From an uncultured Actinomycetes bacterium (GTDB lineage Bacteria; Actinomycetota; Acidimicrobiia; Acidimicrobiales; JACCXE01), in NCBI GenBank assembly GCA_963722185.1, contig CAVRKD010000004.1:130918-194917 (forward strand): a stretch of DNA of 64,000 nucleotides. Direction: 5' to 3'. Numbering within the stretch: position 1 is the first letter of the stretch; the number at the start of each line of letters is the position of its first letter. Made by a program: the position numbers and the translations under genes. Below are positions 16,943-21,301 of the stretch, one piece after another. Under the pieces are notes generated by a model. The model had not been told where the DNA came from. It worked only from the letters and a program-made list of their open reading frames with translations, and did no database searches.

Positions 16943-18474
16943 GTGTCTGTTTCGTTCAACATCGCATCCGACGACATCGCCACCGCACTGCGCAAGCGGC
17001 TCGACGGACTTCACTCCGACGACCGCGTCCGCGCAGGTCGGTCGCGTCATCGAAGTGGGCGACGGTATCGCCCGCGTCGGCGGCCTCCCCAGCGCGGCGG
17101 TCAACGAACTGCTCGAGTTCGAGGGCGGCGTGCAAGGCATCGCCCTCAACCTCGACGAGGAGTCGATCGGCGCAGTGTTCCTCGGTGATGCCGCGCACAT
17201 CGAGGAAGGCCAGTCCGTCAAGGCGACCGGCCGCATCCTCGAAATCGCCGTCGGTGACGGCCTCCTCGGTCGCGTCGTCGACCCGCTCGGCGCTCCGCTC
17301 GACGGCAAGGGCCCGATCCCGCAGGACACGATCCGCCGCGTCGAGATCCAGGCTCCCGGCGTCGTCGACCGCCAGCCGGTGAAGGAGGCGCTGCAGACCG
17401 GCATCAAGGTCATCGACGCCATGACGCCGATCGGCCGCGGCCAGCGCGAGCTGATCATCGGCGACCGCAAGACCGGCAAGACCTCGGTCGCGATCGACAC
17501 GATCATCAACCAAAAGGGTCTCGGCGTGAAGTGCATCTACGTCGGGATCGGTCAGAAGGCCTCGACTGTCGCCGAACTGGTGGCCACGCTCGAAGCTGCC
17601 GGCGCCATGGAGTACACGGTCGTCGTCAACGCTGCGGCGTCGGACCCGCCCTCCCTTCAAGTACCTCGCGCCGTACTCGGGCTGCGCCATGGGCCAGCAC
17701 TGGATGGAGAACGGCGAAGCCGCGCTCATCGTCTACGACGACCTGTCCAAGCAGGCCGAGGCCTACCGCGCCATGTCGCTGCTGCTGCGCCGCCCGCCGG
17801 GCCGCGAGGCGTACCCCGGCGACGTCTTCTACCTGCACAGCCGCCTGCTCGAGCGCGCCGCGCGTCTGTCGAAGGAGCTCGGTTCGGGTTCGCTCACCGC
17901 GCTGCCGATCATCGAGACCAAGGCCGGCGACATCTCGGCCTACATCCCGACCAACGTGATCTCGATCACCGACGGCCAGATCTTCCTCGACCTCGACCTG
18001 TTCAACTCAGGCGTGCGTCCGGCGATGAACGTCGGTACGTCGGTCTCCCGAGTCGGTGGTTCGGCGCAGATCAAGGCGATGAAGTCGATCGCCGGCGGTC
18101 TCAAGCTCGACCTCGCCAACTTCCGTGAGCTCGAAGCCTTCGCCGGCTTCGGCGCCGAACTCGACAAGGCCAGCCAGCAGCTGATCGATCGTGGCCGCCG
18201 CCTCGTCGAACTGCTCAAGCAGACCAACGGCCAGCCGCTGCCCGTGCAGGAGCAGGTCATCTCGATCTACGCCGGCACCCACGGTTACCTCGACGAGCTC
18301 GCGGTCGACGACGTGCGGCGCTTCGAGAACGAGCTGCTCGCCGACGTCCGCGCCCGCGGCGCGGCGGTGCTCGACGCCATCAAGGCCGGGGAGTTCCCCG
18401 AGGACGACATCAAGAAGCTCGTCGAGGACTTCGCCGGTCGCTTCGTCCCGTCCGTCGTAACCGCGGCGGAGTAG
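16943..18474 (+). pseudogene. atpA: ATP synthase F1 subunit alpha, two +1 frame breaks (17008, ~17650)
   Basis: Three frame segments give a complete alpha subunit: [14 protein letters not shown] / [19 protein letters not shown]...GDRKTGKTS (Walker A)...AAASDPP / [18 protein letters not shown]... Confidence 0.93.
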
Positions 18475-18485
18475 GGAGTCCGCAC

Positions 18486-19417
18486 ATGGCTGGCGGCAAG
18501 GAGCGGGTACTCCGCAGGCGCATCAAGAGCGTGGAGTCTTCGAAGAAGATCACGCGCGCCATGGAGCTCATCGCGGCCAGCCGCATTCACAAGGCGCAGC
18601 AGCGCGTCGCCGCCGCTCGTCCCTACAGCGAGCAGATCACCAACGTGATCCGCAACCTGGCGTCGGCCGGCGCCGGCGGCGGCCACCCGCTGCTCACGCC
18701 GCGCGAAACGGTTCGCACCGTCGGCTTCGTCGTGATCGCCGCTGACCGCGGTCTCGCCGGTGGCTACAACTCCGGTGTGTTGCGCCAGGCGGAGCGCGCG
18801 CTCAAAGCACGAGATCGCGCAGGGCCGCGACTACGTGCTGATCCTCGTGGGCAAGAAGGCGCGCGACTACTTCCGCTTCCGCGGCTACACGATCGCCGCC
18901 AGCTTCACCGGTGTCGTCGCCAACCCGTCCTACGAGGACGCCCGCGAAGTCGGCGAGGAAGTTCGCCGCCGCTTCGAGGAGGGCGAGGTCGACCGCGTCG
19001 ACATCGTGTACACGCAGTTCCTCTCCGTCGGCACCCAGATCGTCGTCACGCGCCAGTTCATGCCGATCGAACAGGACACCGTGACCGAGGCGCCCACTGG
19101 GCCTCAGGCGGACTACGAGTACGAGCCCGAGCCCGACGCCATCCTCGACCGCCTGCTGCCGCGCTACGCCGAGGCGCGGCTCTTCGCCGCGCTGCTCGAC
19201 GCCGACGGCGTCCGATCACGCCGCCCGCCAGCGGGCCATGAAGTCGGCCACCGACAACGCCGAAGAACTCATCACGGTGCTGAGCCGCCAGATGAACCGG
19301 GCTCGCCAGGAATCCATCACCACCGAGATCCTCGAGATCGTCGGCGGCGCCGAAGCGCTCGCCCAGAGCGCCGGTGGCGAAGTCGACCTCCTCGCCGACC
19401 GCCAGTTCAGCCTCTGA
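18486..19417 (+). pseudogene. atpG: ATP synthase F1 subunit gamma, two +1 frame breaks (~18805, 19207)
   Basis: Segments ...GGYNSGVLRQAERALK / HEIAQGRDYVLILVGKKARDYF...ALLDAD / [22 protein letters not shown]...LLADRQFSL, then TGA 19415-19417. Confidence 0.9.
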
Positions 19418-19447
19418 TCTTCTTCCACACCACTAGGAGCGATCGCA

Positions 19448-20894
19448 ATGACCGTCACCGCTGACACCGCACTGCAAGGACGGGCGCATCGTCGCCATCG
19501 TCGGCCCCGTCGTCGACGTCGAGTTCCCGCCCGACGGGCTGCCCGAGCTGCACGGCGCGCTCGTCGTTCGAGGTGGTCGTCGACGGCAAGTCGTCGCACG
19601 ATCATCGCCGAGGTCGCCCAGCACATCGGCGACAGCCGCGTGCGCGCCATCTGCATGCGTGCCGACCGACGGCCTTATCCGCGGCACCGTGGTGAAGAAC
19701 CTCGGCCACGGCATCTCGGTGCCGGTTGGCCCCGGCACCCTCGGCCACGTGTTCAACGTCATCGGCGAACCCCTCGACGCCCGCGGCGAGGCCCTGCCCA
19801 ACCTCGAAGAGCGCTGGGAGATCCACCGTCCGGCGCCTCGTCTTCGCCGACCTCGACCCCGCCACCAAGATGTTCGAGACCGGCCTCAAGGTCGTCGACC
19901 TCCTCGAGCCCTACCGCCAGGGCGGCAAGATCGGCCTGTTCGGCGGTGCCGGCGTCGGCAAGACCGTGATGATCCAGGAAATGATCATCCGGGTCGCCCG
20001 CCAGCACGGTGGTGTGTCGGTGTTCGCCGGCGTCGGTGAGCGCACCCGTGAGGGCAACGACCTCTGGCTCGAAATGGAAGAGTCCGGCGTTCTCAAGAAC
20101 ACGGCGCTCGTCTACGGCCAGATGGACGAGCCGCCGGGCGTGCGCTTCCGCGTCGCGCTGTCGCGCGCTGACGATGGCTGAGTACTTCCGCGACGTGCAG
20201 GGCCAAGACGTGCTGCTGTTCGTCGACAACATCTTCCGCTTCACGCAGGCCGGCACCGAAGTGTCGACCCTGCTCGGCCGCATGCCGTCGCTCGGTCGGT
20301 TACTCGCCGACGCTCGCCGACGAGATGGGCGAGCTCCAGGAGCGCATCACCTCGGTCAAGGGCAAGTCGATTACGTCGCTGCAGGCCGTGTACGTGCCCG
20401 CCGACGACTACACCGACCCGGCGCCGTTCACCGCGTTCACCCACTTCGACGCCACCACCAACCTCGACCGCGGCGTGTTCGCCAAGGGCATCTTCCCGGC
20501 GGTCGACCCGCTGGCGTCGACCTCGAACATCCTGCAGCCCGGCGTCGTCGGTGAGGAGCACTACAACGTCGCCCGCCGCACGATTCAGGTGCTGCAGCGC
20601 TACAAGGAGCTCCAGGACATCATCGCCATCCTCGGCCTCGACGAGCTGACCGAAGAAGACAAGGTCCTCGTCGGTCGTGCCCGCAAGATCGAGAAGTTCC
20701 TCGGCCAGCCGATGTACGCCGGTGAGCCGTTCACGCAGATCCCGGGCGCCAACGTGCCGGTCGTCGAGACGGTCGAAGCGTTCGGCAAGCTGCTCGACGG
20801 CGAGTTCGACGAACTGCCCGAGCAGGCCTTCTTCAACGTCGGTGGTATCGACGACCTGATGAAGAAGACCGACCAGCTCAAGGCTCAGGGCTAA
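19448..20894 (+). pseudogene. atpD: ATP synthase F1 subunit beta, seven +1 frame breaks
   Basis: A canonical beta sequence is recovered only by skipping one base at each of ~19477, 19566, 19597, 19661, 19842, 20164 and 20291. It includes GPVVDVEF, Walker [19 protein letters not shown] and [12 protein letters not shown]. Confidence 0.93.
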
Positions 20895-20907
20895 GCAGGT
20901 TCGAACG

Positions 20908-21301
20908 ATGTCGATGCAGGTCGAGGTCGTTTCGCCCGAGCGCATCCTGTTCTCCGGCGAGGCCGACATGGTCGTGGCGCGCTCCGAGGGTGGCGAGATC
21001 GCCTTCCTCACCGGGTCACGCCCCGTTCCTCGGCACGCTCGGCATCGGGATCGTCAAGATCAACCTCACCGGCGGCGGCATCGAACACATCGCGGTGCAC
21101 GGCGGCTTCGTCGAGGTGCGCGACAACCGCGTGATCATCCTGTCCGACGTCGCCGAGCTCGTCGATCACATCGACCTCGAGCGTGCCCGCAAGGCGAAGG
21201 AAGCGGCGGAGAGCGCGCAGCGGGACGGGAACGATCACGAGATCGACGCCGCGCTCCGACGCGCCGAAACGCGCATCGAGCTCGCCTCGCTCGGTAAGTA
21301 A
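20908..21301 (+). pseudogene. atpC: ATP synthase F1 subunit epsilon, one +1 frame break (21016)
   Basis: MSMQVEVVSPERILFSGEADMVVARSEGGEIAFLTG / HAPFLGTLGIGIVKINL... continues in the +1 frame to TAA 21299-21301. Confidence 0.9.

Follow-up and report, generated by a model that had tools for sequence, protein, structure and literature searches.

The single-base insertions that interrupt the F1 ATP synthase genes of this uncultured member of the Acidimicrobiia are very probably an artefact of some kind. The extra bases in atpA, atpG, atpD, and atpC are almost certainly consensus-sequence errors that are absent from the organism's own DNA, and the organism itself almost certainly encodes a normal AtpA, AtpG, AtpD, and AtpC. 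As for how the extra bases came about, our analysis favors a probable route in which alleles of co-occurring strains were stacked at the consensus or polishing stage of a long-read metagenome assembly. The window analyzed here, a stretch of 64,000 nucleotides, is part of a 708,419-bp metagenome contig available from NCBI and ENA; the size of this contig is consistent with long-read assembly, and it is on such grounds that we infer the sequencing platform. Related records carry Flye-style contig names, and related Microflora Danica metagenome-assembled genomes were built from Nanopore reads only, using Flye assembly and one round of Medaka polishing (PMC12313526). The same population is represented in Logan run ERR12037361, where a 1.3-kb Logan contig is matched by an AtpI-like protein. 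The genes and insertion sites are as follows, with the extra base in square brackets.

14568..16940, + strand: atpB, atpE, atpF, and atpH, intact, no frame breaks
16943..18474, + strand: atpA (F1 alpha), two +1 insertions; restored protein 509 aa, relatives 507-509 aa
17005..17009, + strand: extra base 1, A or C in GACGG[AC]TTC, atpA; the A/C doublet equals the relatives' alleles (GGC/GGA/GGG)
17648..17652, + strand: extra base 2, T in GCCC[T]CCC or one C of the run, atpA
18486..19436, + strand: atpG (F1 gamma), three +1 insertions; restored protein 315 aa, relatives 315-317 aa
18804..18810, + strand: extra base 3, within AAAG[C]ACGAG, atpG
19201..19205, + strand: extra base 4, GCC[G]ACG or GCCG[A]CG, atpG; a single position that is G or A in relatives
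19409..19409, + strand: extra base 5, A in TTC[A]GCC, atpG tail; overlooked in the original prediction
19434-19436, + strand: true stop of atpG, TAG
19448..20894, + strand: atpD (F1 beta), seven +1 insertions; restored protein 479 aa, relatives 479-484 aa
19475..19475, + strand: extra base 6, C in CTG[C]AAG, atpD
19562..19564, + strand: extra base 7, CTC[G]TCG, atpD; adjoining position G or T in relatives
19596..19598, + strand: extra base 8, TCGC[A]CGATC, atpD; C, T, or A in relatives
19660..19664, + strand: extra base 9, GCC[G]ACC, atpD; GCC or GCG in relatives
19838..19840, + strand: extra base 10, CCTC[G]TCTTC or CC[T]CG, atpD; first base of the next codon C or G in relatives
20161..20163, + strand: extra base 11, GTC[G]CGCG, atpD; TCC or TCG in relatives
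20290..20291, + strand: extra base 12, GTC[G]CTCG, atpD; TCG, TCC, or TCT in relatives
20908..21301, + strand: atpC (F1 epsilon), one +1 insertion; restored protein 130 aa, relatives 128-130 aa
21011..21016, + strand: extra base 13, ACC[G]GGT, atpC; the sole clearly homopolymer-type site; ACC or ACG in relatives

The original prediction held that the four F1 proteins could be recovered only by skipping one base at each of 12 sites, and suggested a frameshift-aware protein-to-DNA alignment as a check. Such an alignment against intact orthologues places the frame breaks and shows that all 12 sites are real, with positions agreeing within ~5 nt, but the total of 12 does not stand, since a further +1 insertion at 19409 in the tail of atpG had been missed. 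It is because of this 13th insertion that atpG has three breaks and ends at the TAG at 19434-19436; without base 19409, its 12-residue tail resembles that of the relatives, which reads DRTFASDLLPNR followed by the stop. A -1 or +2 event at ~19403, offered by a first protein-level alignment, was dropped, as DNA alignment gives a plain +1 at 19409. That every event is +1, as predicted, is borne out by the protein-to-DNA alignments and by DNA alignments to two and then seven close relatives, and the predicted frame steps are matched by a GC3 frame plot and by the coding-frame Viterbi path. In the seven-relative alignment, 12 of the insertions appear as single columns occupied by the window only, and the site at 19475 is seen in separate DNA alignments.

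Deleting the 13 bases yields proteins of orthologue length with 0 internal stops, which agrees with the earlier observations that no stops lie between the breaks, that the Walker A motifs GGAGVGKT and GDRKTGKT are intact, and that atpB, atpE, atpF, and atpH are unbroken. The restored AtpD is 96% identical to an intact 479-aa homolog (P0001), and dN/dS lies between 0.13 and 0.22 in every segment of the atp genes. The closest relatives come from JGI sample 3300078620, with AtpD 96% identical. In seven close relatives (86-91% nucleotide identity), atpA, atpG, atpD, and atpC are intact, and DNA alignment shows that each extra base is missing from 7/7. Together with 120 database homologs, these relatives have single-frame, full-length genes, and no shift is conserved in orthologues. 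Breaks of this sort do occur elsewhere: P0141 is another frameshifted AtpD fragment, and in a related contig, L081, atpG contains an extra base that is private to that contig. When metagenome contigs were scanned with the restored AtpD, the best locus among the matches listed was 77% identical, and the peptide patterns were generic.

The original prediction placed the density of events far above that of the rest of the window and attributed it to a low-quality stretch. The local excess is confirmed: 13 events fall within 4.0 kb and 9 within the other 60 kb, so that the densities differ 21.6-fold (Poisson P=1.3e-13). Outside the atp genes, however, the window has at least nine more frame breaks, in thrC, a low-molecular-weight phosphatase gene, rpiB (twice), glyA, glpX, an enoyl-CoA hydratase gene, a dsbA-like gene, and gatB. 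Across the window, 21 of 22 events are insertions (P=5e-6). The error is window-wide with a hot spot, instead of a single bad stretch. Within the syntenic 22 kb, conservation is highest from atpA to atpD (85-96%, compared with 65-83% in the flanks). Event density and nucleotide conservation show a Spearman rho of 0.33 (P=0.07), which is only suggestive of the hot spot being driven by conservation, and the conserved genes for methylmalonyl-CoA mutase and AtpH are without any event.

By a criterion that was devised post hoc, after inspection of the sites, 9/12 extra bases form together with a neighbor the pair of alleles found segregating in a single alignment column of the relatives (null 0.22, P=1.4e-4), and 10/13 do so when another alignment and panel are used (null 0.25, P=1.4e-4). 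No panel allele matches at two or three sites, namely 17652, 19409, and, by objective tests, 19838. Homopolymer contexts are in the minority, with 3 of 12-13 sites compatible with one where the null predicts 0.52 (P about 0.035-0.05). That the extra base tends to match the other allele where a site is polymorphic points to a mixed-strain consensus and not to plain low quality. Two further patterns were considered and set aside. A common TC[G] motif, or CpG-creating insertion, is only weakly enriched (P about 0.03), which we attribute to C/G third-position polymorphism in a genome of 67% GC; a bias toward third codon positions is uninformative, as roughly two in three insertions placed at random would show it too.

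A second contig allows the same comparison. L168 (ENA ERZ25039516, contig_46638) is a related contig whose assembly differs from any shown to hold the window. It carries 15 private single-base insertions, in GT4, atpB, atpF, atpA, and atpD, at sites other than those of the window, and the allele doublet is found in 8/15 of them compared with a null of 0.25 (P=0.016), a moderate replication. CpG-creating insertions are in weak excess both there and in the window contig (P about 0.03 in each). ERZ25039516 also holds L081, a cleaner related contig of 4.1 Mb. With the atp operons of both L168 and L081 in one assembly, relatives therefore co-occur in the sample behind that assembly.

In the route that we favor, reads of two or more co-occurring close relatives would pile up on one backbone, and a single-nucleotide difference between them would sometimes be aligned as an insertion plus a deletion. 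A consensus or polishing step, presumably at this point in the pipeline, may then retain both alleles side by side. A polymorphic position would in this way become a two-base doublet, always +1 and rarely a homopolymer extension, at a rate that would be low along the whole contig and high over atpA-atpC. Foreign reads would align most easily over atpA-atpC because this is the most nucleotide-conserved stretch of the neighborhood.

An artefact could also have arisen with no mixing of strains, from insertion errors, random or context-specific, that a long-read platform or a polisher left behind in a locally low-coverage or poorly polished stretch, and we regard this as possible but rather unlikely. 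The insertion-only errors throughout the window and the same signature in L168 would fit such an origin, a local coverage dip would fit the 21.6-fold hot spot, and a basecalling or polishing context error could explain the weak excess of CpG creation, e.g. in TC[G] and CC[G] contexts (P about 0.03 for either of the two contigs). Random insertions, however, would be expected to be homopolymer-compatible in about half of the cases, as opposed to the 3 of 12-13 observed, and to match a segregating allele in ~25%, as opposed to 75-77%. Nanopore consensus errors are typically errors of homopolymer length, often deletions, and this profile also counts against an artefact of the non-mixing kind.

Could the genes instead be genuine pseudogenes of very recent origin, with F1 ATP synthase and several other housekeeping genes lost by true insertions? 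The deposited sequence does contain the extra bases, and public collections annotate the fragments as separate proteins; a 189-aa AtpD piece and a 103-aa AtpC piece of this contig stand there as entries of their own. We nevertheless consider this very improbable. Joint loss of atpA, atpG, atpD, atpC, glyA, gatB, thrC, and glpX would be hard to survive, the genes contain no stops, larger indels, or degraded motifs and retain a dN/dS of 0.13-0.22 per segment, and the relatives are intact in 7/7 cases. The same lesion at other sites in L168, another public metagenome contig, also argues against it. Bacterial gene decay is reportedly deletion-biased (Mira, Ochman and Moran 2001), the opposite of a spectrum in which 21/22 events are insertions. 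More broadly, it is scarcely probable that the extra bases truly stand in the DNA of the Acidimicrobiia population, be it through fresh loss of F1 ATP synthase and core enzymes or with non-slippery +1 read-through by a novel form of recoding or editing.

Recoding, in which programmed +1 ribosomal frameshifting, transcriptional slippage, or RNA editing yields full-length subunits, is extremely unlikely: all that speaks for it is the canonical form of the proteins when a single base is skipped at every site, and against it stand 13 sites with no shared motif or slippery run and 0/7 conservation of the sites in relatives, shift points that lack a stop or any evident pause codon (at the nine Viterbi-resolved atpA-atpC transitions, the previous frame continues without a stop for 17-473 nt), lesions in unrelated genes and at other positions in L168, no run of more than 3 nt, and so no long A/T homopolymer, when slippage runs were sought at each site, no family match in an Rfam search of 13.5-22.5 kb, and the almost complete loss of product that seven successive shifts in atpD, even if efficient, would entail. 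The original prediction preferred an insertion-biased sequencing or assembly error and rated recent operon loss or recoding much less likely; all computed evidence favors the former, and we find the latter two very unlikely.

As the ATP synthase of the organism is very probably normal, the broken frames have no biological significance. They are rather a caution that in public genomes from long-read metagenomes the most conserved genes can hold clusters of +1 insertions that are not of the homopolymer type, where marker genes such as atpD, atpA, glyA, and gatB are split into fragments that enter protein databases separately. Should the stacked-allele signature prove robust, it would offer a read-free way to flag and repair consensus errors, by the rule that an extra base which is the alternative allele of a polymorphic site is treated as an error.

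The window can be compared with several known systems. Frameshifting of the prfB/RF2 type likewise involves a +1 change of frame to make a full-length protein, but it differs from the window, which has 13 different contexts and lacks a conserved shift site, an in-frame stop or hungry codon, and conservation in orthologues. Decay of the Mycobacterium leprae type likewise leaves many housekeeping genes with disrupted frames, whereas the atp genes here are free of stops, deletions, relaxed substitution, and motif loss. In indel artefacts of long reads (Nanopore or PacBio), too, single-base indels split perfect genes into adjacent open reading frames, and many housekeeping genes are affected on one large contig (708 kb here). 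The usual Nanopore residuals are errors of homopolymer length, in contrast to the window, where the events are mostly non-homopolymer, nearly all insertions, and concentrated in a 21.6-fold hot spot. Gene-fragmenting indels in long-read assemblies are described in PMC12007338 and PMC8103633, and also in PMC8445201. The last of these concerns a collapsed assembly of Trypanosoma brucei Lister 427, in which nearby allelic variants led to misaligned reads and to indels that truncate open reading frames (PMC8445201). That case involves two alleles of a diploid eukaryote and PacBio reads, whereas the window would reflect a mixed pile-up from co-occurring strains or species; in the window, the extra base matches an alternative allele in 10/13 sites.

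The window, with a GC content of about 67%, belongs to an Acidimicrobiia-type actinobacterium, and the genomes that match it best are Acidimicrobiales MAGs. It carries an atp operon at 13.8-21.3 kb, in which the four genes upstream of atpA are each a single ORF, just as the original prediction had described them.

Intact genes of the atp operon
14568-15365, atpB, single ORF
15396-15674, atpE, single ORF
15685-16416, atpF, single ORF
16416-16940, atpH, single ORF

atpA, atpG, atpD and atpC exist solely as overlapping ORF fragments in differing frames, and across 16.9-21.3 kb the coding frame shifts repeatedly by +1, both in a GC3 frame plot and in a coding-frame Viterbi path (self-trained). 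By exact look-up, the window's proteins are publicly recorded (NCBI and ENA) from one 708,419-bp contig, among them AtpD and AtpC fragments of 189 and 103 aa. Gene order is the same in all close relatives (window 12521-13693 and 13834-14567 were noted here): LMW phosphatase, rpiB, glyA, GT4 (WecA/MraY-like), ATPase_gene1, atpI, atpBEFHAGDC and a LigT-acetyltransferase fusion, then YkuD, glpX and methylmalonyl-CoA mutase.

The original prediction attributed the fragmentation to 12 single-base insertions and called for a frameshift-aware protein-to-DNA alignment. With intact orthologues from two related genomes as references, this alignment regains full-length alpha, gamma, beta and epsilon subunits by one-base skips at those 12 sites (about 17009, 17649, 18810, 19204, 19475, 19563, 19591, 19661, 19839, 20164, 20291 and 21013). 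The sites thus stand, while the total does not, as the atpG tail contains an overlooked A at position 19409. A multiple DNA alignment with seven relatives (nucleotide identity 86-91%) has 12 window-only single columns, of which this A is one, and a further single extra C at 19475; without the A, the atpG tail matches the relatives' DRTFASDLLPNR and stop. Deleting 13 bases leaves ORFs of 509, 315, 479 and 130 codons, none interrupted by a stop, which sets the count at 13 (atpA 2, atpG 3, atpD 7, atpC 1); all are +1, as proposed, and the predicted lack of stops between breaks also holds. The four genes are intact in the seven relatives (atpA 507-509 aa, atpG 315-317, atpD 479-484, atpC 128-130), save for a private extra base in atpG of L081, a syntenic 4.1-Mb contig. 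Among the matches listed, AtpD is in a single frame in 120/120 homologues, and the best match to the restored AtpD is 96% identical and equally 479 aa long.

Concerning the kind of insertion, the only clear homopolymer extension is at 21013 (GG to GGG), and homopolymer-compatible sites number 3 of 12-13 against 0.52 expected for random insertions, in agreement with the earlier remark that the contexts are not long homopolymers. On inspection of the alignment, the extra base and one neighbour usually equal the relatives' two alleles at one variable position, for example G/A at 19204-05, G/T at 19563-64, C/G at 19663-64, and G/C at 20163-64 and 20290-91. Against simulated random insertions, 9/12 sites show such doublets (null 0.22, P=1.4e-4), and 10/13 do so with another alignment and panel (null 0.25, P=1.4e-4), by a criterion that was in both cases chosen after the data had been seen, and replication was therefore sought. 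It is possible, though we consider it rather unlikely, that these are plain insertion errors of low coverage or particular contexts; a weak excess of CpG-creating insertions (P about 0.03) speaks for this, but such errors leave both the allele match and the avoidance of homopolymers without explanation.

The rest of the window is not clean either and holds at least nine further frame breaks. Those in the LMW phosphatase gene, rpiB, glyA and glpX emerge from frame transitions without a stop codon, tblastn junctions with related-locus ORFs and DNA alignment to L081; the four in thrC, the enoyl-CoA hydratase gene, the DsbA-like gene and gatB emerge from Pfam domains divided between frames.

Frame breaks elsewhere in the window
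965-1080 (-), thrC, +1; Pfam PALP profile positions 1-75 and 78-294 in separate frames
9477, LMW phosphatase gene, +1
9962 and 10084, rpiB, two breaks, +1
10889, glyA, +1
25468 (-), glpX, +1
~37371, enoyl-CoA hydratase gene, +1; Pfam ECH_1 positions 3-186 and 179-243 split
~43100, DsbA-like gene, one-base deletion in GCGCC_GAGG; Pfam positions 2-44 and 61-188 split
~59110, gatB, +1; Pfam GatB_N and GatB_Yqey split between frames

Insertions make up 21/22 events (P=5e-6). The predicted excess in atpA-atpC is nonetheless real, with 13 events in 4.0 kb versus at least nine in 60 kb, which makes this hot spot 21.6 times as dense (Poisson P=1.3e-13). Separately, window 22978-24636 (+) encodes a protein of roughly 500 aa with a long Thr/Pro-rich low-complexity tail (especially 24367-24576) and no Pfam match; according to the coding-frame path there may be a -1 change around 24367-24559, where homologues diverge.

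Clustered at 90%, the AtpD fragment groups with other fragments on long contigs, one being on L168 (contig_46638, 117 kb) of ENA ERZ25039516, also the source of the cleaner L081. Single-base insertions private to L168 number 15 in its positions 1-10300; they break GT4, atpB, atpF, atpA and atpD, at positions differing from the window's, and the gene call of L168 fuses atpB with atpE; many of the insertions resemble a G after TC or CC. The doublet pattern is replicated there, at 8/15 sites (null 0.25, P=0.016); L168 may share the window's assembly. Three further compared loci (L083, L084, L085) have 1-2 private single-base insertions each. A database AtpD fragment (P0141, on a 25,342-bp ENA contig) ends in 14 letters that are an out-of-frame reading, and thus represents a third assembly in which atpD is frameshifted, again at a different site. 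L081, otherwise clean, carries one C too many within a CCC run in GT4 (~4010, window ~13321) and one extra base near the atpG start (~9109, window ~18554), the latter explaining why atpG is called there at only 290 aa; both resemble the homopolymer-type errors that are usual in long reads.

Judged from sequence, the extra bases are very probably consensus errors rather than mutations, and reflect no real biological feature, since the lesions are private, nearly all insertions, spread over unrelated essential genes and recurrent in a related contig at other sites, while the coding sequence is otherwise perfect (dN/dS 0.13-0.22, no stops). Real pseudogenisation is highly improbable, as it would mean that ATP synthase, SHMT, GatB, ThrC and GlpX were all lost at once, with neither stops nor deletions and with a bias towards insertions, the reverse of the deletion bias known in bacteria. 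Recoding has next to no credibility, given 13 unrelated contexts, old frames that stay open for 17-473 nt past nine resolved transitions, no site conserved in the seven-relative alignment and no Rfam family matched in 13.5-22.5 kb.

The sequencing or assembly error originally suggested is thus supported, with similar errors across the window, and the doublet signature makes it fairly likely that the consensus stacks alleles of co-occurring relatives. Reads of such relatives would be piled on one backbone, a SNP between them would be aligned as an insertion plus a deletion, and both alleles would be kept in the final consensus. atpA-atpD has the highest nucleotide conservation in the syntenic 22 kb (85-96% versus 65-83%), which would favour cross-alignment of foreign reads; bin-wise, conservation and events are only suggestively correlated (rho 0.33, P=0.07), and so this cause of the hot spot is one that we infer. 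Indel errors that arose from neighbouring allelic variants when a long-read assembly was collapsed are on record (PMC8445201), and for many of the related MAGs the pipeline was Nanopore-only, with Flye and one round of Medaka (PMC12313526).
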